Below, one piece after another: positions 40,101-53,344 of a stretch of DNA of 64,000 nt. Source of the stretch: Bdellovibrionales bacterium (lineage in GTDB: Bacteria; Bdellovibrionota; Bdellovibrionia; Bdellovibrionales; UBA1609); assembly GCA_041690295.1 (NCBI GenBank), contig JAWLHR010000011.1:36796-100795 (forward strand). Direction: 5' to 3'. Both the position numbers and the translations under genes were made by a program. Positions within the stretch are counted from its first letter, which is position 1; each line of letters begins with the position of its first letter. The notes beneath the pieces were generated by a model that was not told where the DNA came from, ran no database searches, and was given only the letters and a program-made list of their open reading frames with translations.

Positions 40101-42765
40101 TCAAATCCGCCAGACATTCATCGACTTCTTTAAAAAACATGGGCACGTGGAGGTGCCGAGTTCGCGCCTGATCCCGGAGAACGATCCCACTCTGCTGTTC
40201 ACCAACGCGGGCATGAACCAGTTCAAGAATGTCTTCCTCGGCCTGGAGCAACGCGATTACAAGCGCGCGGTATCGGCGCAGAAATGCGTGCGCGCCGGCG
40301 GTAAACACAATGACCTGGAAAACGTCGGGCACACCCGCCGCCATCACACGTTTTTCGAGATGATGGGGAATTTCTCCTTCGGCGATTACTTCAAAAAAGA
40401 AGCGATTCGCTTCGCCTGGGAACTGGTGACGAAAGAGTTCGGCATCGACAAAAACCGCCTCTACATCTCGGTCTTCCAGGATGACGACGAGACGGCCGAG
40501 ATCTGGCATAAACAAGAAGGCGTTCCCCGCGAGCGGATTTACCGTTTCGGCGAAAAAGATAACTTTTGGCGCATGGGCGACACCGGCCCCTGCGGTCCGT
40601 GCTCGGAAATCTTTTATGACCTCGGCCCTGAAGTGGGCGGCGATCCCAAACAGAATGTCATGGGCGGCGAAGGCGACCGCTACATGGAAATCTGGAACCT
40701 GGTTTTCATGCAATACTTCGAAGATGGGAAAGGCGGACGTTCGCTCCTGCCGAAACCCTCGGTCGACACCGGCATGGGCCTCGAACGCGCATCGGCGGTT
40801 TTGCAGAATAAGCTCAGCAACTATGACACTGATCTTTTCCAAGACATCATCCAAGCGGTGGCGAAGACCGCGAGACGCGAGTATGGTTCCGATCCCAAAA
40901 CCGACGTCGCCCTTCGGGTGATGGCCGATCACGCGCGCGCCGCGGGATTTTTGATCGCCGATGGCGTTTTGCCGTCCAATGAGGGCCGCGGGTATGTTCT
41001 ACGCCGGATTCTGCGACGGGCGATCCGTTACGGCCGCCAACTTTCCCACGACTCCCTCTTGCCGGTGGCCGTTCGGGAAGTCGTGCGCAAGATGGGCTCC
41101 CATTACGCGGAACTTGAACAGCGCAAGAACATCATTGATCGTACGGTTCAGGATGAAGAGCGCCGCTTTCTCGCCACCCTCGATCAGGGCACGCATGTTC
41201 TCGCCCAAGAGCTGGATCGTCTCGCCACTGGTGGCACTTTGAGCGGCGAGGTCTTGTTCAAACTTTATGACACCTATGGGTTTCCCGTGGATCTCACCCG
41301 AATCATGGCGGCCGAGCGGGGATTTAAAGTCGACGAACTGGGTTTTGAACAGCGTCTTGAAGCCGCCAAGGAAAAAGCCCGCGCGTCGTGGAAAGGGAAA
41401 ACCATTTCCGGCGATCAGGCCTTTCTCGTGACCTTCAGTCAGAACGTGCAACGCCAGTTCGGCGAAACGCCGTTCACCGGTTATGGGACAACGGTCGACA
41501 ACGCCAAGATACTGAAACTGGCCGATGGAAAAAATGAAGTTAGTGAACTGAAGGCCGAGCAAAGCGGCGTTTTGGTTTGCGATAAAACCTGTTTTTACGC
41601 CGAAGGCGGCGGCCAGGTCGGCGATCGCGGCGTGATTCGCTCACCCACTGGTGAAGCCGAGGTTCTCGACTGCACCAAAATGAACGGTGTTCATTTGCAT
41701 CACGTGCGGGTGCTCGACGGCGAACTTAAAGTCGGCGATCCGGTGCAGCTCGTGGTGGATCAGCGGGCGCGCCAAAGCACGGCCAACAATCACTCGGCCA
41801 CCCACCTTCTGCACGCGGCCCTACGCAAAGTTTTGGGCGCGCACGTGCAACAGGCGGGATCATTGGTTGAACCCGAGCGTTTGCGTTTCGACTTCACCCA
41901 TCCGCAGCCGCTGTCACGGGCGGAAATCGAAATGATCGAAAACCTCGTTAATGAGGAAATCGATAAGGGCACTGTAGTGGAAGCCGAAGTGATGCCACAT
42001 AAAGCGGCGCTCGAAAAAGGCGCCCTCGCCCTCTTCGGTGAGAAGTATGGCGAAGAAGTGCGGGTGATTAAGATGGGCGAGTTCTCGATTGAGCTTTGCG
42101 GTGGCACGCACGTCGCCCACTTGTCGCAAATTCGGTTATTCAAAATTTACAGCGAAAGCGGCGTCAGCGCGGGTGTCCGCCGGATTGAAGCCGTGACGGG
42201 AGAACGGGCGGTTCAGTACGCCCTGACGGGGTTGCGCGAAACCGAGGCCAACCGCCAAGTGATCGGCTCTTCTTCGCTTTTCGCTGAGCTTTACGGCACG
42301 GCGACCAAAGCGTTGTCGGGTCCTGAGTGGTCCGAGCAAAAAATCGAAGAGGTCAAAAAGCTTCAGCGTGAAATCCAAAACCTCAAGGGCAAGAACGTCA
42401 ACGTGGACTCGCTCGCGGAATCGGCCCGCCCGTTCCGCTCGGACGGCATCGAGGGCCGCTGGGTGTTCGCCGACATTCCGATGGATGACCGGAAAGTGCT
42501 CTCGGATCTCTCGGATCGCTTGCAGGACAAGTTAAAACCGGCGGTGGTCGTCCTGGTGGGACAAGGCCAGAACTCTCATCCGTTGATCGTGAGCGTGAGC
42601 AAATCCCTGACCCCCAAACTGAATGCGGGCAAAATTTTAGGTGAAATCGCCTCCGCATTGGGTGGAAAAGGCGGTGGACGGCCGGATTTCGCCCAAGGCG
42701 CCGTGCCTTCGCGACAGAATCTCGCGGCCGCGCAAGCCAAGGCCTCGGCGTTGCTCGAGGGTTAA
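40090..42765 (+). CDS. alaS: Alanine-tRNA ligase
   Basis: LLFTNAGM, HSATHLLH, ELCGGTH, GGKGGGR. Confidence 0.99.
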   Translation: MKSDQIRQTFIDFFKKHGHVEVPSSRLIPENDPTLLFTNAGMNQFKNVFLGLEQRDYKRAVSAQKCVRAGGKHNDLENVGHTRRHHTFFEMMGNFSFGDYFKKEAIRFAWELVTKEFGIDKNRLYISVFQDDDETAEIWHKQEGVPRERIYRFGEKDNFWRMGDTGPCGPCSEIFYDLGPEVGGDPKQNVMGGEGDRYMEIWNLVFMQYFEDGKGGRSLLPKPSVDTGMGLERASAVLQNKLSNYDTDLFQDIIQAVAKTARREYGSDPKTDVALRVMADHARAAGFLIADGVLPSNEGRGYVLRRILRRAIRYGRQLSHDSLLPVAVREVVRKMGSHYAELEQRKNIIDRTVQDEERRFLATLDQGTHVLAQELDRLATGGTLSGEVLFKLYDTYGFPVDLTRIMAAERGFKVDELGFEQRLEAAKEKARASWKGKTISGDQAFLVTFSQNVQRQFGETPFTGYGTTVDNAKILKLADGKNEVSELKAEQSGVLVCDKTCFYAEGGGQVGDRGVIRSPTGEAEVLDCTKMNGVHLHHVRVLDGELKVGDPVQLVVDQRARQSTANNHSATHLLHAALRKVLGAHVQQAGSLVEPERLRFDFTHPQPLSRAEIEMIENLVNEEIDKGTVVEAEVMPHKAALEKGALALFGEKYGEEVRVIKMGEFSIELCGGTHVAHLSQIRLFKIYSESGVSAGVRRIEAVTGERAVQYALTGLRETEANRQVIGSSSLFAELYGTATKALSGPEWSEQKIEEVKKLQREIQNLKGKNVNVDSLAESARPFRSDGIEGRWVFADIPMDDRKVLSDLSDRLQDKLKPAVVVLVGQGQNSHPLIVSVSKSLTPKLNAGKILGEIASALGGKGGGRPDFAQGAVPSRQNLAAAQAKASALLEG

Positions 42766-42956
42766 CGCTTAGAGTACCGCCCCTTAACTTTACGCTGCTC
42801 TATCAAGTAACAGACTTAGATCCACCACTAGTTGCGTCACGACTCGGTATCTATGAATAAATTCCGACATTCGACTGGAATGTTTAGCGACCAGATAGAC
42901 ATACCGAACAAGCTAAACAAATATTTTGTATAAACTCCAATCGCTGAGGTTGAATC

Positions 42957-45900
42957 GTGGCATCGGATCAAATTATCTCCCCCATATTTATTGACTTTGG
43001 AAGCCGAAATACAGGCGTCATCCTTCTTCATGGAAAAGTGAATCAGTCGATATTTGACTGGCAGAAGTCAGGTAGTCTCATCGTCGCCGATGAAAACAAG
43101 AAAACTTGGGCGCAAATTTCACGCCGGATAAAGCGACATCAAAAGAGAAATATTGAACGGCGACAAATGGCCAAACGGCTTCTCTTAATTATCCTTAAAG
43201 AAGTATTTGCGTTCACGAACAATGAACTTGAAACCACCGTCAATCAAAATCAAACAGCACTCCAATTCATGACGGGGCTGTTGAACCGCCGCGGCTACAC
43301 GCGCCTTGATGAAGGTGTGGATCGAGAGGCCATAAACAATCTAGACATTGATCTCATCAAGGAACACGATCCGTCGTTTGCCGATTATCTTTCTTCTTTT
43401 TCAACAGTCTCCGAGGCAATCGAATCAGCGGCGAACTTGAGCTTACAAGAAATTGACGATTTTTTGAACCACCCGGCTTTCGAGCAAGTGGAAATCATTA
43501 AGGGTAGGTCTGTCCGCAGGCGATTCGCTATTTTAGAAAAAGTGCCAACAGAACTCAAAAAACCTCTCGAAACAGGGCTTTCAGCAACTCTTAAAGCGCT
43601 TGAGAGTTACAAACTGGCACTCGACGAAGGACATAAGAGAAGACCGGAATACTTTAATGACATTAAAGAAGTGATCTCGGCGAATGCTCAATTCGTCGTT
43701 CTTTTAGAAAAAAAAGGCTTAGACGTCGATTCTTTTCACCGCCTAATTAGTAATATAAGCAATTTGCAGCTTAGAATGCTTAGAAAGTATTTTAATGATC
43801 CAAGCTTCAAATCAGGCGATCGATGGTATCCCGAAAAATTGAAGAACGTCTTTTCGCGATATGTTCAATCTTGGCATGCAAGAAATAAGAAGGAAAAAGC
43901 CAATAAAAAAGAAATCCTAGCAAGACTTCAAAGTACACCTGATATCATCAACCTACTTGCCTCCCTCGATCCCCAAATTACAATTCCGCCATATGAAGAT
44001 CAAAATAATCGATCTCCTCTAAAATGCCGCAGTCTTTTGCTCGACCACGAAAAACTCGATCAAACGTTCCCCAATTGGAAATTTTGGACCGAGAAAATCG
44101 TATCCAAATATCCTGAGATTACAGAAGAGTTGGAAGCCCGCCAGGTGGGCCATACACAACCCTCCCGCAATGCTCCCAAAGAGGTTCGCATTCTTCAAAG
44201 ATTCCTTGAGGCTTCGAACCATCTCCAAGAAACCTACAATTTACGTAAAGTGGCCCGTTCTGATTCTAAATCAGATTTCGATGACCAGCTTCAGGCTCTC
44301 GCAAACCTCTTGGGAGGAGATCAAATTGACTCCTTTTTAAACTTGGCCCGACGAATCTTCGATGAAGTTCATCAAGCGCGATATGGAATCTGGAATGAGC
44401 TGTCCAATACTCGGATTTTGACCAGGTGCGATATTACGACGCGAACTAAAGCCAATTCAAAAGAAATCGATCTTGCGCGGGTGTTAGGAACAAAAAAAAG
44501 AGCTGGCGTTGTCAATGAATTCGAGAATCTCCTAAGGAAAGGCGAAAAGATCAATCGAAAATCGCTTAAATCCGTTCTTCAAAGCTGCTCGGACTGGATA
44601 AAGAGAGAAGGTTCTCTATTTAAGGAAAAGGTTCAGCTAATCCAAGGTGGACAAACCAAAGACTTCGACAACAAGCTTATCGAACTTGTCAAGGTTGGGG
44701 GCGAAGTCGATAAAGCTGCCTCCCTCATTGCAGGTCATTTTGGAGTAGATGAAGACAAGATCAATAATCCCTGGTCGCTCTCCCAAATCTTCAACATCTA
44801 TTTTAGTACCCGAGCTGGGCATTCCTCCTCATGTGCAGCCTGCTCTGGAGATAACTTCTGGCGAACACGAACCAATTCGAATCACCAGGCCAATTGCTCT
44901 TCTCTTCCTACAGATGCCGTTCGCCCATTCGATGGCGTCGTCCGCCGTCTTGTCGAAGATTTTGCTCATGCAATAGCGCGAAAGAAACTTGAGCAAATTG
45001 GAACATCCTCCTCAGTGTTAGTCCCAGTTGTGATCGAAGAAAATCGATTTTCGTCCGCAGAAGATCTACTTGTGCTTAAACGTAGCCAAAACTTAGAAAT
45101 CAGGAGCGATCGAAGATCTTTTTTGAAGAAGGCGCGTGTATCTGATGAGCAGATGTTTCAGAACAAGATCGAAAGGATTCAATCTGCATCGCGGTCCATT
45201 TGTCCCTATTCCGGACAAAAACTAATTCAAGACGGTGAAATTGATCATGTCATTCCGCGCTCATACACTCTTAAACATTTCAAATCAGTTTTAAATCACG
45301 AGGCCAACCTCATCTATGCTTCAAAAACCGGTAATCAATCAAAATTGAACAGTATATTCAACCTGGAGGACCTACACCCAAAATATCTAGAAGCTCAGTT
45401 TGGCACGAACGATATTTCCAAAATCGCAAAAACGATACAGTCCACGATAGAAAGTTTATTGGAAGAAGATCGACTTCGTCTCCAATTTCTCAGACTCAAA
45501 GAACAGGAGCAGCGTGATCTTCGGCACGCACTCTTTGTCCCGGATCTTCGCAAGACGATTCTTCCCAAACTCGCGCAACAATCACGCAACTGGGCGAATG
45601 GCACACAAAGATACTTGGCGAAAGTTCTTCAAAGAGAAATTTGTAAAAGAAACCCAAATGCGGACGTACAGATCCAATTTGCCGATCCGGTCGAAACGTC
45701 AATCTTAAGGGACAATCTGGCCAAACAAGACGTTCGACTTACAAAGCAAGAAAATCAGCCCATCATCAGCCACCTTTATGATGCGATGATTGGTGGACTT
45801 TCTAATATTTGGGTTTCAGAAAACATATCGAAAGAAATCACTACGGCACTAATTGACGCCGACTCATTTTATACCTTGTTACCGAGATCTTTCGACGTTT

Positions 45901-47150
45901 TCACTTTAAGTTCACGCTCCAAAGCTAAACGAGATAATCCATTCTCGAAGTCAATGTTTAAAGATGAAATGTACGCAGAGCACTTTTTACCGGTTTGGCT
46001 GAGCCGCGATGGCAACCTTGGATTCGGTTTTAATCCAAATGAATTGATTATTTGTAATCCAAACAAGTCGGAACAAATTTGGTCTGCACTGACTCCATTT
46101 TTGATTGGACCGAAGCAAACCGAGCCAGCCGATTTCAAGAAGGAGATAAGCACACGTAAAGAAAAGTGGACCTATTATACCGTCAATAAGAATAAGGCAT
46201 TTCAGTTTTTTAACAAACATGCTCTCCAACCTGATCCAGAAACTCAAATTGTTTGGGAGACCTTGAATTCCCTACGTTTCACAACTCAGAAAATGGAATT
46301 CTTTGATATTGTTTTCAAAGAAGAAAAAAAGAAGAACTCACGTGAACTCCTGTCCGTATCGGAATTCGAGAAACAACATAAGGCGAAAAAATTCACATTA
46401 GAAAGATCGAGCCTAGGAAAAGGTATAGTTGTCATACCATCTTATCATGAGTGGACAAAAAGAATTGAAGAACTTAGACATGACAGAATTGTTTCTATTC
46501 CGTTGGATGAGTTTGAACTCACGAAGCGCGAATTAGGGAGGAACTACTTTCTTGATGGAACTAGTGCAAACAAGAGGATGCGTGCACGAAAACAGTTTTC
46601 CCTTCCGATGTTAAAAAACGCATCTGGTGGATTTCGCATTGAGCGGACTAATTTTTTGAGTGAAAGCATTTATCAACTTCAGTCAATAGACGACCTTTCG
46701 GCAGTAGGTGTACTTAAGTCAGACAAAAGAACCTATGTGCCCGTACCTGGATTATTAAGTGGTTCAATTACCCCACTCAGTGCGGAGTTTAGAATAAGCG
46801 AAGACTTTATTTCGTTTGATGAATGGTTTGACGTCAATGTTGACGCGAGAATGGAAGAGCAGGGCATAACTAAACTCCGCGTACAGTATGGAACAAAGGA
46901 TAGAAGAAACGTTGAACTTACGGTCAAACCCGAAAAGCTGTTGGAACTATTTGATTTACAAGATTCAGATATTTTCAAAATATTTCGAACAATCGACTTT
47001 CGGAAATCGAATCTTCCAAAAAAAGTTGGAAGGCCAAGAGACAAATGTACAGTTGTACGAGTCGACTTAGATGAAGGGATCACTGTTCGATACAGTGCCG
47101 AATCCGCCTCCGAGCTTACAGAGGAAATATTCAAGCTGGCGAACATATGA
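42957..47150 (+). CDS. cas9: Type II-B Cas9 (1397 aa)
   Basis: RuvC-I PIFIDFGSRNTG; bridge helix RRIKRHQKRNIERR; RuvC-II VIEENRF; HNH CPYSG...IDHVIPRS...N; RuvC-III SHLYDA; followed by cas1-cas2-cas4. Confidence 0.96.
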   Translation: MASDQIISPIFIDFGSRNTGVILLHGKVNQSIFDWQKSGSLIVADENKKTWAQISRRIKRHQKRNIERRQMAKRLLLIILKEVFAFTNNELETTVNQNQTALQFMTGLLNRRGYTRLDEGVDREAINNLDIDLIKEHDPSFADYLSSFSTVSEAIESAANLSLQEIDDFLNHPAFEQVEIIKGRSVRRRFAILEKVPTELKKPLETGLSATLKALESYKLALDEGHKRRPEYFNDIKEVISANAQFVVLLEKKGLDVDSFHRLISNISNLQLRMLRKYFNDPSFKSGDRWYPEKLKNVFSRYVQSWHARNKKEKANKKEILARLQSTPDIINLLASLDPQITIPPYEDQNNRSPLKCRSLLLDHEKLDQTFPNWKFWTEKIVSKYPEITEELEARQVGHTQPSRNAPKEVRILQRFLEASNHLQETYNLRKVARSDSKSDFDDQLQALANLLGGDQIDSFLNLARRIFDEVHQARYGIWNELSNTRILTRCDITTRTKANSKEIDLARVLGTKKRAGVVNEFENLLRKGEKINRKSLKSVLQSCSDWIKREGSLFKEKVQLIQGGQTKDFDNKLIELVKVGGEVDKAASLIAGHFGVDEDKINNPWSLSQIFNIYFSTRAGHSSSCAACSGDNFWRTRTNSNHQANCSSLPTDAVRPFDGVVRRLVEDFAHAIARKKLEQIGTSSSVLVPVVIEENRFSSAEDLLVLKRSQNLEIRSDRRSFLKKARVSDEQMFQNKIERIQSASRSICPYSGQKLIQDGEIDHVIPRSYTLKHFKSVLNHEANLIYASKTGNQSKLNSIFNLEDLHPKYLEAQFGTNDISKIAKTIQSTIESLLEEDRLRLQFLRLKEQEQRDLRHALFVPDLRKTILPKLAQQSRNWANGTQRYLAKVLQREICKRNPNADVQIQFADPVETSILRDNLAKQDVRLTKQENQPIISHLYDAMIGGLSNIWVSENISKEITTALIDADSFYTLLPRSFDVFTLSSRSKAKRDNPFSKSMFKDEMYAEHFLPVWLSRDGNLGFGFNPNELIICNPNKSEQIWSALTPFLIGPKQTEPADFKKEISTRKEKWTYYTVNKNKAFQFFNKHALQPDPETQIVWETLNSLRFTTQKMEFFDIVFKEEKKKNSRELLSVSEFEKQHKAKKFTLERSSLGKGIVVIPSYHEWTKRIEELRHDRIVSIPLDEFELTKRELGRNYFLDGTSANKRMRARKQFSLPMLKNASGGFRIERTNFLSESIYQLQSIDDLSAVGVLKSDKRTYVPVPGLLSGSITPLSAEFRISEDFISFDEWFDVNVDARMEEQGITKLRVQYGTKDRRNVELTVKPEKLLELFDLQDSDIFKIFRTIDFRKSNLPKKVGRPRDKCTVVRVDLDEGITVRYSAESASELTEEIFKLANI

Positions 47151-48130
47151 AACATTTGGTCGTTAGTGAGTATGGGACATTCTTAGGGATAAAAAGTCAA
47201 CGACTCATCGTTAAACAGAATGATCAATTAATACGTGAAATCCCCCTCAATCGATTACAAACAGTTGTGGTCACAAAGTCGGGCGTGACGTTTTCTTCAG
47301 ACCTACTTATCAATTGTGCGCAGCGAGGCATAAAATTCTTTTTGACCGATTTCAAAGGCGAACCCGTTAACGCTCTCACGGGTATCCATCAACACGGAGT
47401 CGTTGAGTTAAGAAAACAGCAATTCATGAAGTTTCCTGGCTTGCAAGGGCGTGAACTCGCGCGAGTAATTTTGCGATCGAAAGTAAAGAGTCAGCGTGCT
47501 GTATTGTCCTATTTTGCTAAGTACCTCAAAAAACACGGGGGAAACGTCGCAAACTTAGAACAGTCTCGCATATTGCTTGAAGAAATAGACAACCATCTAA
47601 TGCAGACCGACCTATCGGGCGAAACTTGGCGATATAGATTACTTGGATTGGAAGGAGCCGCGGCTAGATCTTATTTTAGCTGTTGGTCAGATCTGAGTGT
47701 ACCCTTAAAAGAGCGATCCGGAAGAGGTGCTCAAGACCTGGTTAATGCAACCTTAAATTATGGTTATGCGATTTTACAGAGTTATATTTGGAAAGCTGTC
47801 ATCAATGCGGGATTAGAGCCTTACTTTGGTTTTCTCCATACGGAAAGACCGGGAAAACCAAGTTTAGTTTTGGATTTAATGGAAGAGTACAGAGCCTGGG
47901 TGGTCGATCGGCTCACCATTAAACTTACTGCGCGAAAAGACCATCTCGCGAGCTTCGGCCAGGAAGAGCGCCGCCGAATCGCACAAGAAGTCCAAAGAAC
48001 GATGGAAGGAAAAATCTTCTATTCAAATCGTCGGCTAAGGCTCGAAACGGTTATACAACGAAGGGTTTATCAACTTTGCGGTTCGCTTTTTTTACAATCG
48101 AAGTATCGACCGCTAACGTTCAAGTGGTAG
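47147..48130 (+). CDS. cas1: Cas1
   Basis: LGLEGAAARSYF, NATLNYGY, GFLH, DLMEEYR. Confidence 0.97.
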   Translation: MKHLVVSEYGTFLGIKSQRLIVKQNDQLIREIPLNRLQTVVVTKSGVTFSSDLLINCAQRGIKFFLTDFKGEPVNALTGIHQHGVVELRKQQFMKFPGLQGRELARVILRSKVKSQRAVLSYFAKYLKKHGGNVANLEQSRILLEEIDNHLMQTDLSGETWRYRLLGLEGAAARSYFSCWSDLSVPLKERSGRGAQDLVNATLNYGYAILQSYIWKAVINAGLEPYFGFLHTERPGKPSLVLDLMEEYRAWVVDRLTIKLTARKDHLASFGQEERRRIAQEVQRTMEGKIFYSNRRLRLETVIQRRVYQLCGSLFLQSKYRPLTFKW

Positions 48131-48133
48131 TCC

Positions 48134-48421
48134 ATGGTCCGTCCCTATCTCATCGCTTACGACATCAGTGATAATAAATCGAGGACACGCATATTCGAAA
48201 ACCTGAAGGATCTCGGATTGAGTCCGGTTCAAAATTCAGTTTTTTGGGGTTATCTTACAGTCGCGGAATTTAGGGCTGCAATTCGACTGTTGGAAAAAGC
48301 TTGCAAAGATGCGGATGACCGTGGACTGGCCATCCCCATTTCAATTGCTGATATCGGTAAGGCAAAAGCCATAAATTATCCAGAAAACGTCTTTGTTAAG
48401 GTGGATTATGAAGTCCTATGA
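48134..48421 (+). CDS. cas2: Cas2
   Basis: YLIAYDISD...PVQNSVF. Confidence 0.96.
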   Translation: MVRPYLIAYDISDNKSRTRIFENLKDLGLSPVQNSVFWGYLTVAEFRAAIRLLEKACKDADDRGLAIPISIADIGKAKAINYPENVFVKVDYEVL

Positions 48422-49016
48422 AGCTCACCGAACTAACCATCCCACCTTTCCAATCAATTTGCTTAGACAAGCTCAATTCTGTCCGCGCATCCCCTATTTT
48501 TCACATTTGGTGGGACTTCGATCCAAGTCGCCTCTTTGGGTTGAACAAGGTTCCGATCATCATAATCTCGAACTCAAAAGGATAAAACGACGATCGCTAG
48601 AAAGATATGGTATCGAGAACCCAAAATTCCTGCGTAATGTCTTCTTAGAATCAAAGAGCATAGGCGTACATGGTTTGGCGGACGGGCTGATCATAGGCAC
48701 CTCAAAAGGATGCGTCGTAGAATTCAAGCTAGGGAAACAGTCAATTCACAAAGGTGCCATGATTCAACTAAATGCTTACGCCATGATCGCTGAGGAGCAA
48801 TTCGGTATCAAGTTTGAGCATAATTTCTTTGTTGTCGAAAAAATGGGTAAAATGATTCCCGTGCCGTTAACCGAGCGAAGCAGAAAGCAAGTACTGGAAG
48901 CCCGGGATTCCCTCTTACGGATATTAAATTCGCCGCTCTTACCTCAATCGCCAGCCACACCACATCAATGCGGACAATGCGAATATCTTTGGCGTTGCAA
49001 TGACCGGAATTGGTAA
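48408..49016 (+). CDS. cas4: Cas4
   Basis: FCPR, G.AD...VEFK, QLNAYA, C-terminal CGQC...C Fe-S ligands. Confidence 0.95.
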   Translation: MKSYEAHRTNHPTFPINLLRQAQFCPRIPYFSHLVGLRSKSPLWVEQGSDHHNLELKRIKRRSLERYGIENPKFLRNVFLESKSIGVHGLADGLIIGTSKGCVVEFKLGKQSIHKGAMIQLNAYAMIAEEQFGIKFEHNFFVVEKMGKMIPVPLTERSRKQVLEARDSLLRILNSPLLPQSPATPHQCGQCEYLWRCNDRNW

Positions 49017-49018
49017 AT

Positions 49019-49059
49019 AAAAAACTGGGTATGTGGGCCTGGCGTTTGCCAGACCCACA
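49019..49059 (-). terminator. 3' hairpin / terminator of tracrRNA
   Basis: UGUGGGUCUGGC-AAAC-GCCAGGCCCACA then UACCCAG-U6; the one non-WC pair is G-U only on the minus strand. Confidence 0.7.
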
Positions 49060-49120
49060 GAGTCCCCATTCACAACTTTCTTTTGATGATTTCAGTGCAT
49101 CGGAATTGAAGGATTTACAA
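49019..49120 (-). ncRNA. tracrRNA
   Basis: Anti-repeat at 49089-49113 (minus strand UCCUUCAAUUCC-GAUGC-ACUGAAAU) pairs with the crRNA repeat GUUUCAGU-UGCUG-GGAAUUGAAGGA; followed by a 12-bp hairpin and a U6 tract; 5' end approximate. Confidence 0.88.
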
Positions 49121-49236
49121 TGCTTTTTTCGTCGTTTCTTCGAAAAACTTGAGGTTTTTTTAACAACTTTTGTTTTTCGAAAAAATTAACCATTCAAGCT
49201 CCCAAGAAGCCAAGCAAGTCAATAACTTAGCTTGGG
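49121..49236. promoter_or_regulatory. CRISPR leader (acquisition end) with IHF-like site
   Basis: AT-rich; AGTCAATAACTTA at 49217-49229 is one mismatch from WATCAANNNNTTR; adjacent repeats are perfect. Confidence 0.6.
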
Positions 49237-51487
49237 CTTCCAATTCCTCCTTCAATTCCCAGCAACTGAAACTCCTAACGTTGCGGGCACACCATAAGTC
49301 ATCATGCTTCCAATTCCTCCTTCAATTCCCAGCAACTGAAACATCGAAGCGCGGGATTTCCTGGGCAATGAATAAGCCTTCCAATTCCTCCTTCAATTCC
49401 CAGCAACTGAAACTGATTGCCAAATTATCACATAGGCATTTCAAATCACTTCCAATTCCTCCTTCAATTCCCAGCAACTGAAACCTTAAGGGCGGAGGAC
49501 TCCCAAACTGGACTTGCTGCTTCCAATTCCTCCTTCAATTCCCAGCAACTGAAACACTGTTTAAGTGTATACAGTTTCGCTTATAAAATGCCTTCCAATT
49601 CCTCCTTCAATTCCCAGCAACTGAAACGCATTGCCTTTCTGTTGTCCTTCCAATGTATCCACTTCCAATTCCTCCTTCAATTCCCAGCAACTGAAACGGC
49701 CGCGCCGGTGGAAACTCCCTGTTGTTCAAGAATCTTCCAATTCCTCCTTCAATTCCCAGCAACTGAAACTTTTAAGCGCTTCCGCCATCTGTTTCACGAC
49801 ATTCGCTTCCAATTCCTCCTTCAATTCCCAGCAACTGAAACTTAATTGATAAACACTGAAATACGTTTGAAACTGACTTCCAATTCCTCCTTCAATTCCC
49901 AGCAACTGAAACAACGATTCGCGGGTTCTGCTGCCGCATCTATCAATACTTCCAATTCCTCCTTCAATTCCCAGCAACTGAAACAAAAGCGGGAGTAACG
50001 GTCGAAACACGGCCCCCTGTGACTTCCAATTCCTCCTTCAATTCCCAGCAACTGAAACTTAAAATGTCGGCCACATTTTCGGGCGTTAATACTTCCAATT
50101 CCTCCTTCAATTCCCAGCAACTGAAACCTAAGAACAAATACACTCAACAAAATTATAATCCGCTTCCAATTCCTCCTTCAATTCCCAGCAACTGAAACAA
50201 GCTGAGCGCGATGCAATCAACTCGCCCGCTCAGGCTTCCAATTCCTCCTTCAATTCCCAGCAACTGAAACCAAAAAACCTGACAAGCTTTGATTTTTATG
50301 TTTTGCTTCCAATTCCTCCTTCAATTCCCAGCAACTGAAACCGAAACCTCCGCCAATTCGGTCTGGCTCATTTTAACTTCCAATTCCTCCTTCAATTCCC
50401 AGCAACTGAAACCGGTTGCCCACGCGTGGACTCGTACGGGAAAATTTCTTCCAATTCCTCCTTCAATTCCCAGCAACTGAAACCTTGCATTTCATAAAGA
50501 AATAACTGAAGTGTTTGCTTCCAATTCCTCCTTCAATTCCCAGCAACTGAAACGTGATAACCGCCCCCGCCCGCGCCGCCGAATGGACTCTTCCAATTCC
50601 TCCTTCAATTCCCAGCAACTGAAACGAGGATGTCCACAATGACCCCAAGCCTTTCGACTTTCACTTCCAATTCCTCCTTCAATTCCCAGCAACTGAAACC
50701 TGCGCTTGCTGCGTGCGCTTTTTTAGCGCTTAAACTTCCAATTCCTCCTTCAATTCCCAGCAACTGAAACTTCAAGTGTGTGCACGTGCCAATCCGTCGT
50801 ATGCGCCTTCCAATTCCTCCTTCAATTCCCAGCAACTGAAACTGATTGAGCGGCCAAGGCGCCTCAAAGCTTCGGTCTTCCAATTCCTCCTTCAATTCCC
50901 AGCAACTGAAACCTACTCGCCACTAACAAGCTCCGCGGTCTTACCTGCTTCCAATTCCTCCTTCAATTCCCAGCAACTGAAACTAAGTAGCTTTTGAATT
51001 GACTCAACCGGGCGATTACTTCCAATTCCTCCTTCAATTCCCAGCAACTGAAACTTCAGCCGTTCGTGGCGCGAGCCCTTCCATCAAAACTTCCAATTCC
51101 TCCTTCAATTCCCAGCAACTGAAACACAGGAATATTGTTTCATGATCCGGTAAAAATCTCTTCCAATTCCTCCTTCAATTCCCAGCAACTGAAACAAAAG
51201 CGGGAGTAACGGTCGAAACACGGCCCCCTGTGACTTCCAATTCCTCCTTCAATTCCCAGCAACTGAAACCCGAGAGATCCGCGAACGGAGGTCTCGCATT
51301 TAGGGCTTCCAATTCCTCCTTCAAATTCCCAGCAACTGAAACTGTCGATACGCCACGTCTTTTCGTGATCTGGGTCACTTCCAATTCCTCCTTCAAATTC
51401 CCAGCAACTGAAACTTGATTCGGCCCAAGGAGTACACGTTACGGCTTGAACTTCCAACAATCGACCACCCCGGTTCGGAACCGAAGA
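49237..51487 (-). CRISPR. Type II-B CRISPR array: 31 full repeats, 1 degenerate repeat, 31 spacers of 33-38 bp
   Basis: 36-bp repeat, plus strand CTTCCAATTCCTCCTTCAATTCCCAGCAACTGAAAC (minus strand begins GTTTCAGTTGCTG, as in the Francisella II-B repeat). Last two full repeats carry an extra A; remnant CTTCCAA at 51451. Confidence 0.99.
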
Positions 51488-51655
51488 GAAGTCCTCTCAT
51501 CACTCATACTGATCGGGATTTATATGGATATGTTTTAGTTTAAGGATTGTTAAATACGAACCAAAGTCCAAGCCGAATGGGCTATCCCAGACTGCGAAAA
51601 CCGATTATCACGCCTTTATCGCGTTTCAAACAAGGTCAGTGGGCAATTTAGTTTT

Positions 51656-53215
51656 TTATCTTCCGTTCACCCGATAGAGAGTGGCCAAATAAACCGAGTC
51701 GTCATCGCCGTTGGTGGCCAACCCCACGCGATAGGTTTGCCCGTCGATCACAACGTCCCCTTTATATCGATTCGGCAGCTTGGTGACGGGAACCACCTGA
51801 CGAAGAGCACTTAACGCGCGATTGATTTCCTGGTCGGTCAAATCATGCTTGGCCATCAGTTTCGCCCGAACCTGTTTGGCAATGAAAATCTCGTTGATGT
51901 AACGGCCTTTGATCAACACGCGATGGCCGTTGGGAAAGGTGAAGGTGAAATCCAAAATGTTGTAGCGATCCGCCACGTCCCGCCAGAACGCGCGCTGTTC
52001 GACTTCCGAATAGGGCTCAAGACTTAAGACTTCGAACTCCATATCCCCATTCGGCAACTTCGCCAGCTGATAACGGACCAGATAATTATCCCTGGTTTGC
52101 GGATTGCCATAGACCTGCAGGTAAATCGATTCATCTTCATCTTCAGGCAGATGATAAGGCAGGCCCGTGATCAAATGGCTGAGTAATCCCGACCTCATCA
52201 AACCGAAAAGAATCGGGTTCACGTTGGACGCAAAGTTCAGATGATACCTGGGTTTGCGAGGGGGCGTGGGCGCAACTCTGGCTTCCCCCGACTCCATTTG
52301 GCCACCCGCCGTCCGCGTGGGTTTCACTTGGGCGATGGGAATAACGACCAAGCGATGCTGCTCCGAAGCCATTTTACCGATCTCTTCCCGGGGAACGGCC
52401 AAATAAGGTTCATCCCGTTCCATCAACTCATAAAGCAGATTGAATCCCTGACTTCCGGTGAAGTTGCTGAAAGAGTTCGGCTCGGCATCGGTCGATCGAA
52501 GCTCAGCGAGAGCGGTGATCATTTTTTCCGAAATGTGCGCGCCGAACTTTTCACCCAGCTGACCGATTAAATCCTCTAGATCAGTCTTAAGAAAATATTC
52601 GCCGTGGACCACCACCCAACCCACTTTCTTGCGTTGGGCGATCAGCGCGAAGGGCCTTTGTAAAGTGAGCGCGTTACTGGCGGGTGGAATCAGGTCGAGG
52701 TAATGCCGTTTGAGGGCCCAGTTCGACATGGTGATGATTTGTGACGGAGCTATCGGTTCATTTACCAGCTCGACGGGCGCCGGTGGCTCGGGTGGGGCCT
52801 CATTGGTTTCGCTTGTTCTTTCCGCCTCCACGACCCGCGGGCGAATCCATTTTAAACCTTGTTCAGAATACTGGGACTCAAGTGCCACGATCATCGTCAA
52901 GAGCTGGCGGCCGGTCCCGCTGATCTTGAAGTTCAGCAGAGCTTGTCCCCCATCCGCGGTGACCGAAACCAATCGCGTGTCCACGGAGTGAAGTTTCGCG
53001 AGAGCCTCGAACTCCTTCATACGAAACGTCCCGGACTCCACCACCTGAATCGCCCGCTCCATCGGCCGATCCAGATCCGATTGCGCCAAATCGACGATCA
53101 AAGCTTTAACTGGATCGCGATCTAAAATCGCCTCACATAAAATCTCTTCGAGACCAGGCACGTGAGCTTGGAGGGACGATGAAAACAAAACAAACAAAAG
53201 CAGAATTCGTTTCAT
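51656..53215 (-). CDS. Secreted hypothetical protein, possible C-terminal BrnT-like domain
   Basis: Signal peptide MKRILLLFVLFSSSLQA; 519 aa. Confidence 0.75.
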   Translation of the reverse strand: MKRILLLFVLFSSSLQAHVPGLEEILCEAILDRDPVKALIVDLAQSDLDRPMERAIQVVESGTFRMKEFEALAKLHSVDTRLVSVTADGGQALLNFKISGTGRQLLTMIVALESQYSEQGLKWIRPRVVEAERTSETNEAPPEPPAPVELVNEPIAPSQIITMSNWALKRHYLDLIPPASNALTLQRPFALIAQRKKVGWVVVHGEYFLKTDLEDLIGQLGEKFGAHISEKMITALAELRSTDAEPNSFSNFTGSQGFNLLYELMERDEPYLAVPREEIGKMASEQHRLVVIPIAQVKPTRTAGGQMESGEARVAPTPPRKPRYHLNFASNVNPILFGLMRSGLLSHLITGLPYHLPEDEDESIYLQVYGNPQTRDNYLVRYQLAKLPNGDMEFEVLSLEPYSEVEQRAFWRDVADRYNILDFTFTFPNGHRVLIKGRYINEIFIAKQVRAKLMAKHDLTDQEINRALSALRQVVPVTKLPNRYKGDVVIDGQTYRVGLATNGDDDSVYLATLYRVNGR

Positions 53216-53261
53216 TAAAGAACTGTTCCTGATGGTTAAAAATGATTTTTAAGAGTGAGGT

Positions 53262-53277
53262 AGCAAGGGACGGGCCA
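53262..53277 (-). promoter_or_regulatory. sigma54 promoter
   Basis: Minus strand TGGCCCGTCCCTTGCT, TGGC-N7-TTGC. Confidence 0.65.
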
Positions 53278-53318
53278 GTCCCCGCGGGGATTTCGTACCA
53301 GATTCACGCGGGGACTGG
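53275..53318. other. Intergenic inverted repeat (12-bp stem)
   Basis: CCAGTCCCCGCG ... CGCGGGGACTGG downstream of the DUF2723 gene; no U-tract. Confidence 0.6.
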
Positions 53319-53344
53319 GGAAAAATTGCCACGTTACATCGGGC

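Follow-up and report, generated by a model that had tools for sequence, protein, structure and literature searches.

A 64,000-nt stretch of the genome of a Bdellovibrionales bacterium (GenBank assembly GCA_041690295.1, contig JAWLHR010000011.1, positions 36,796 to 100,795; hereafter, the window) contains a complete type II-B CRISPR-Cas9 system in which both the Cas9 reading frame and the catalytic residues are intact. Judging from sequence comparisons, it is highly probable that the locus provides working adaptive immunity, with Cas9 cutting next to an NGG protospacer-adjacent motif (PAM). In the proposed mechanism, CRISPR RNA (crRNA) and trans-activating crRNA (tracrRNA) produced from the minus strand would pair over 25 nt, be trimmed by RNase III, as is known for the family, and load Cas9, which would cut invading DNA adjoining NGG, the two guanines being read by R1316 and R1361. 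An element resembling the REC3 clamp of Francisella novicida Cas9 (FnCas9) would gate the HNH nuclease domain, leading to mismatch sensitivity, and the cuts would probably be staggered, as in the Cas9 of Parasutterella secunda (PsCas9). Cas1, Cas2 and Cas4 would insert new spacers at the cas-proximal leader, where the crRNA transcript has its 3' end.

The type II-B locus and its Cas9

The locus consists of four plus-strand genes, namely cas9 of type II-B (Csx12; 42957..47150, 1397 aa, GTG start), cas1 (47147..48130, 327 aa), cas2 (48134..48421, 95 aa) and cas4 (48408..49016, 202 aa), the latter being the signature accessory gene of II-B, followed by a predicted tracrRNA, a leader and a CRISPR array. 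Cas9 was assigned by family-model score together with alignment: it reaches 419.6 bits on the II-B model TIGR03031 (curated cut-off 399.4) and also matches PF21069. Cas1, Cas2 and Cas4 score above the cut-offs of their general families, and the best PADLOC models for the four genes are Cas9b, Cas1_II, Cas2_II and Cas4_II. These assignments bear out the original prediction, made from the sequence alone, of a complete II-B island with cas1-cas2-cas4; the operon cas9-cas1-cas2-cas4 without csn2 is the gene set by which II-B is defined (PMC3737331). The locus holds the sole cas1 and the sole array of such kind found in the 2.88-Mb assembly. The subtype is, as had been stated, the rarest of the classical Cas9 subtypes, with 80 published loci vs 1013 for II-A and 1167 for II-C (PMC10120712, Table 1).

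The window Cas9 was aligned with 19 homologs (20 rows); the residue equivalences given here rest on sequence and profile alignment, and FnCas9 numbering was obtained via a tag offset of 3. The RuvC residues D13, E694, H939 and D942 and the HNH residues D763, H764, N784 and N793 are invariant in 20/20 rows, so that the intact RuvC and HNH motifs reported previously hold at all eight positions. The earlier claim of cysteines placed like the FnCas9 zinc site stands in part: C357, C626 and C629 align with FnCas9 C460, C814 and C817, which, together with C657, presumably bind zinc; C491 of the window Cas9 would be the counterpart of C657. Residues C357, C491, C626 and C629 co-occur in 10 of the 20 rows and are mostly lost jointly in the remaining rows, a pattern that fits one shared site. 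The clamp residues of FnCas9 REC3, K789, N791, S792, Y794 and Q798 (PMC12231574), align with K601, N603, N604, W606 and Q610, respectively, which delineates a REC3-clamp-like motif at residues 601-610 with K601, N603 and Q610 kept, S792 replaced by N604 and Y794 by W606. The size of the protein is ordinary for II-B, with many homolog matches of about 1400 aa; LpCas9, for example, has 1372 aa (PMC12231574).

A search that yielded 8000 scored candidates from a set of 5.8 billion proteins identified two nearest relatives, 37% and 36% identical to the window Cas9, and no other candidate that aligns along most of the protein exceeds 31% identity. In a FastTree phylogeny of 53 rows, which carried long-branch warnings, these two relatives, the Bdellovibrionales locus L007 and the window Cas9 form one clade with a support of 100; of the relatives that bear a name, the nearest is a Bdellovibrionales genome. 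The literature on II-B orthologs, on metagenomic II-B systems (since 2023) and on CRISPR/Cas9 in Bdellovibrio, patents being outside the scope, yielded no study of this clade. The main text of a catalogue of 79 Cas9 orthologs does not mention Bdellovibrio, and the II-B enzyme named there is Lpn (PMC7606464); II-B is likewise not mentioned in the covered part of another report (bioRxiv 10.1101/2023.05.26.542337). The suggestion that the ortholog may be new is supported by this search and phylogeny, in which identity does not exceed 37% and no close characterised ortholog appears, and the window Cas9 apparently is an uncharacterised, divergent ortholog.

Among solved structures, the best match is PsCas9 (PDB 8UMF, 9KO9; E 1e-109, residues 8-1328), which resembles the window Cas9 in size, in having S1223, R1316 and R1369 in the same alignment columns, in an NGG PAM, the probable one of the window Cas9, and in a cas4-containing locus. 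However, PsCas9 lacks the four cysteines, its repeat and tracrRNA sequences differ, and the Parasutterella relatives are only 28-29% identical to the window protein. The match to FnCas9 (PDB 5B2O, 9EHF) is weaker (E 5e-59); C460, C814, C817 and the clamp residues K789, N791 and Q798 all have aligned counterparts, and the R1556 column is conserved, whereas the window Cas9 is 232 aa shorter, carries N and W in place of S792 and Y794, and belongs to a locus in which no small CRISPR-associated RNA (scaRNA) was found and the repeat has 36 nt rather than 37 nt. The Legionella-type II-B Cas9 (1372 aa; locus L029) aligns over its full length and is alike in gene order, leader motif and size class but differs in a Cas9 identity of 28%, a 37-nt repeat and membership in a separate clade. 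Closest of all are the uncharacterised Bdellovibrionales locus L007/P0003 and P0004, in the same clade, with all four cysteines shared. Locus L007 provides the best match for each of the window cas9, cas1, cas2 and cas4 among 60 loci; yet, identity reaches only 36-37% for Cas9 and 47-53% for Cas1, Cas2 and Cas4, and an array like that of the window was not found in the L007 genome.

The PAM and the matched protospacers

The PAM, stated to be unknown in the original prediction, is very probably NGG, which has been reported for both FnCas9 and PsCas9. In PsCas9, which has an NGG PAM and leaves 3-nt overhangs on cutting (PMC10482872), R1316 and R1369 read NGG and S1223 contacts the PAM (PMC11544209); the PAM arginines of FnCas9 are R1556 and R1585 (PMC12231574). 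In a profile of 28 C-terminal segments (PsCas9 chain 8UMF numbered with a tag offset of 22, by our own count from S1223 and T1247), the invariant column of R1316 of the window Cas9 also holds PsCas9 R1316 and FnCas9 R1556, and PsCas9 R1369 shares its column with R1361; FnCas9 R1585 lies outside the aligned stretch, and S1223 is kept between the window Cas9 and PsCas9. Two distant arginines, R1316 and R1361, are thus predicted to read the guanines.

The second line of evidence comes from contigs of four public metagenome runs aligned onto the locus. Non-array contigs match at least six spacers (4, 10, 13, 15, 20 and 23) and continue into non-repeat DNA, with 0, 1 and 2 differences for spacers 20, 10 and 15, respectively; one 5343-nt contig is matched by both spacers 4 and 15. 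Among the matches listed, four of the five PAM-side flanks are NGG in register: on the plus strand, CCA, CCG, CCC and CCT directly precede spacers 10, 13, 15 and 20, which on the crRNA strand corresponds to TGG, CGG, GGG and AGG following the protospacers. The probability of four NGG flanks out of five arising by chance is 7e-5 to 6e-4. Given that the aligned PAM residues and the protospacer flanks are two independent lines of evidence, NGG is the most likely PAM, and the view of the PAM as unknown is superseded. In Legionella, where II-B interference has been demonstrated, the PAM is written as CCN on the 5' side (PMC5071653).

That the PAM-interacting domain has diverged so as to read a longer PAM, or one different from NGG, appears unlikely: the last 218 residues of Cas9 are only 15-32% identical to those of relatives and one of the five flanks is out of register, but S1223, R1316 and R1361 are conserved with PsCas9, and all four bases occur at the N position of the four in-register flanks.

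With regard to the targets, depth per bin suggests that, among the matches listed, about five spacers between 49485 and 50876 match contigs of similar depth (11-12) in run X4, which perhaps reflects repeated targeting of one element. The array of a bacterium from a predatory order appears to record attacks by elements that occur in the microbial communities of wastewater and compost.

tracrRNA, repeats and array polarity

The predicted tracrRNA occupies 49017..49130 on the minus strand, both ends being approximate. Its anti-repeat (49089-49113), placed between cas4 and the array as is characteristic of II-B, forms a 25-nt duplex with the start of the repeat at -31.0 kcal/mol; a hairpin of 12 bp and a U-run come after it (z -3.54), in agreement with the claim that the locus encodes a tracrRNA, which stands as a predicted RNA. 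Rfam returned zero matches over 42700-51700, the tracrRNA hairpin was not among the calls of the terminator scan, and the promoter scans found nothing above shuffled sequences. Both pre-crRNA and tracrRNA are predicted to be transcribed from the minus strand, opposite to the cas operon, and a minus-strand crRNA agrees with the PAM side of the matched protospacers. The F. novicida array was measured to be transcribed in this orientation (PMC3737331), which is a further likeness between the two loci.

The array (49237..51414; crRNA strand predicted as minus) consists of 31 repeats and 30 spacers of 33-38 nt, 29 of them distinct. The 29 leader-side repeats are identical 36-mers, in line with the homogeneous array originally described; this homogeneity does not extend to the two cas-distal repeats, which have 37 nt (51306-51414), or to spacers 11 and 28, which are identical 38-nt sequences (49985-50022 and 51196-51233) 17 units apart. 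Beyond the last repeat lie a spacer-like stretch of 36 nt and a 7-nt repeat remnant (51415..51457, minus strand), likely the oldest end of the array. The extra base of the 37-nt repeats would bulge against the anti-repeat, which suits the 36-nt form. Comparison of 60 related II-B loci and the window yielded 39 usable arrays, of which 36 have 37-nt repeats and only one, besides the window, has 36-nt repeats; the repeat end GTTTCAG is common to the window and other II-B arrays. A perfect match to a Shine-Dalgarno-like word, AAGGAGG, also occurs in the repeat (49237-49272, minus strand), within the half that processing probably removes.

An exact scan of metagenome contigs with the repeat gave nothing credible. 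In the alignment of run X4 onto the locus, a 375-nt contig of depth 2.6 (record 25) carries 268 nt identical to the 5' part of cas9, fused at 44354 to an array (50735) that has the same repeat but different spacers, and might represent a deletion variant or a misassembly.

The leader, by inference the integration end, spans 49131..49236, with TTCG-centred motifs at 49139 and 49176 and a site at 49217-49229 that resembles the consensus of an integration host factor (IHF) site. A 2021 paper in Current Biology reportedly describes IHF and upstream motifs in II-B leaders. In a set of 29 arrays with at least six repeats and sequence past the far end, in which a few chains began inside the array, variant repeats occur in the last three, cas-distal units of 11 arrays and in the first three, proximal units of none (0/29). 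The TTCG-type motif pair precedes the first repeat by about 98 and 61 nt; 34 of 38 loci have it on the cas side, whereas none of 30 has it on the far side, with the caveat that the motif pattern was chosen after the sequences were inspected and that the loci compared are related. Because variant repeats are cas-distal and leader motifs cas-proximal, spacer acquisition most likely takes place on the cas-proximal side, where the crRNA transcript would have its 3' end. For II-B, type-I-style integration at the leader with the array transcribed towards it has been proposed (bioRxiv 10.1101/2025.06.12.659244), and the same reversed polarity is established for II-C (PMC12638026); the present comparison lends genomic support to the II-B proposal.

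Origin of the locus and alternative interpretations

The locus lies behind alaS, which ends at 42765, upstream of cas9, and is likely to have been gained horizontally at a variable site. The GC content of the cas operon is 42.8% compared with 52.5% for the genome, in which only 2 windows out of 1364 (6.1 kb each) are as low, and GC at third codon positions (GC3) is 0.41-0.45 in the cas genes vs 0.58-0.68 in the flanking genes, so that the visibly AT-rich island behind alaS seen originally is substantiated by measurement. None of 17 genomes of the same genus (77-100% complete, partly fragmented) matches this Cas9 or TIGR03031, and no cas gene was found in the 15 alaS-downstream stretches recovered from them. 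In at least 11 of these 15 stretches, alaS is separated from a common downstream block by 35 bp to about 4 kb, often with differing genes in between; of the remainder, among those listed, two are cut off by the edge of the contig and the neighbours of two more are different. Horizontal acquisition, as proposed in the original prediction, is thus supported by the low GC and GC3 together with the absence from 17/17 same-genus genomes and 15/15 stretches, and the donor probably was another Bdellovibrionales-associated lineage. The site itself (window 42766-53344; loci L067-L081) appears to hold variable cargo across the genus, with no integrase seen.

A locus inherited vertically from an old Bdellovibrionales ancestor and lost in most relatives would account for the II-B Cas9 matches in 13 of 384 genomes of the order, the one analysed here included, for the nearest named relative being a Bdellovibrionales genome and for same-order proteins grouping near the clade. 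Nevertheless, such an origin is improbable considering that GC and GC3 are far below those of the host, that none of the 17 same-genus genomes carries the locus and that the Cas9s of the same family are of a long form (1706-1882 aa) in a separate clade. Long II-B Cas9s, with open frames of 1477-1882 aa that mostly fall in one clade, are encoded in loci L100-L110 of the same order, and in one family of the order three of five genomes carry such a protein.

Slightly less credible still is that, besides defence, Cas9 represses host genes in the manner of F. novicida, through a guide that is scaRNA-like or matches partially. The clamp-like motif is kept, the terminal spacer at 51415-51457 is bounded by only a 7-nt repeat remnant, and four spacers have PAM-adjacent matches of 11-13 nt in the host genome; short repression targets, moreover, are hard to detect computationally (PMC10120712). 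However, no full spacer match was found in the genome outside the array, and no stand-alone degenerate repeat; apart from the anti-repeat, the only repeat-like sequences were two matches of 13 of 18 nt that lie within coding regions. Seed matches of at least 11 nt next to a PAM occur for 4 of 31 spacers vs 24 of 310 shuffled ones (p 0.30), all four inside open reading frames (ORFs), and the best host match of the terminal spacer is 9 nt. With no stand-alone repeat and seed matches at the chance level, an FnCas9-like role in gene repression is unsupported. The least probable alternative is a relic that looks intact but is silent or was inactivated recently, at which the depth-2.6 contig of the wastewater run, joining cas9 to an array with different spacers, might hint by way of deletion variants, but all four frames are open, the catalytic residues are kept, the 29 leader-side repeats are identical, the leader motifs lie at conserved distances and spacers match contigs with 0-2 differences.

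Several observations detract from the preferred reading of the locus as a horizontally acquired, NGG-dependent immune system. The whole array gave one chance-level match against phages (E 0.7) and one against plasmids (E 0.6), and its matches to the 384 same-order genomes were weak (E 0.0016-0.009), some of them being related repeats; exact scans found no credible match in viral contigs for the cores of 3 of the 30 spacers, or in metagenome contigs for the core of one of the 30. The PAM count rests on five flanks among the matches listed, one contig each, the spacer-23 flank is GTGG, one base out of register, and the matches to metagenome contigs do not establish whether these are phages or plasmids. 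In duplex energy the minus strand has no more than a slight advantage (-31.0 vs -27.8), the clamp residues differ from those of FnCas9 at S792 and Y794 (N604 and W606), and the branch that links the clade to the longer same-order Cas9s has a support of 89, unstarred and with long-branch warnings. Finally, neither an integrase nor a terminal repeat was found at the insertion, nor any attachment-like repeat above 10 nt between the island ends.

A broader proposition, which we advance tentatively and consider doubtful as a whole, is that a so far unstudied, Bdellovibrionales-linked II-B clade retains the four-cysteine site and the fidelity clamp of FnCas9 although the protein is 232 residues shorter, and that it uses a 36-nt repeat and a tracrRNA of its own. 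If true, such an enzyme could serve as a compact NGG editor with natural high fidelity and staggered cuts, orthogonal to both SpCas9 and PsCas9, and the leader would allow a clean test of whether spacers are acquired in II-B at the 3' end and with the help of Cas4. Few II-B Cas9s, which are valued for intrinsic fidelity, have been characterised, and the present ortholog of 1397 aa, for which a tracrRNA is predicted and the PAM is supported by data, can be tested as it stands. Since NGG, the motif of the studied II-B enzymes, is also the most likely PAM here, the targeting range would not be widened, and the locus represents a new ortholog rather than new biology; its interest, as a candidate compact high-fidelity editor, is modest, and nothing in it would surprise a specialist.

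Two further observations concern the surroundings of the locus and its variants. The 519-aa ORF behind the array (51656-53215) was considered as a part of the island and rejected, given its host-like GC and homologs in 5 of the 17 same-genus genomes; it has no Pfam, NCBIfam or PADLOC match, and homologs were found in none of the family's other genera searched. Contigs of runs X1 and X3 that cover 48540-48748 and 49027-49175 are about 85% and 92% alike, respectively, showing that related cas4 and tracrRNA variants occur in the metagenome runs.

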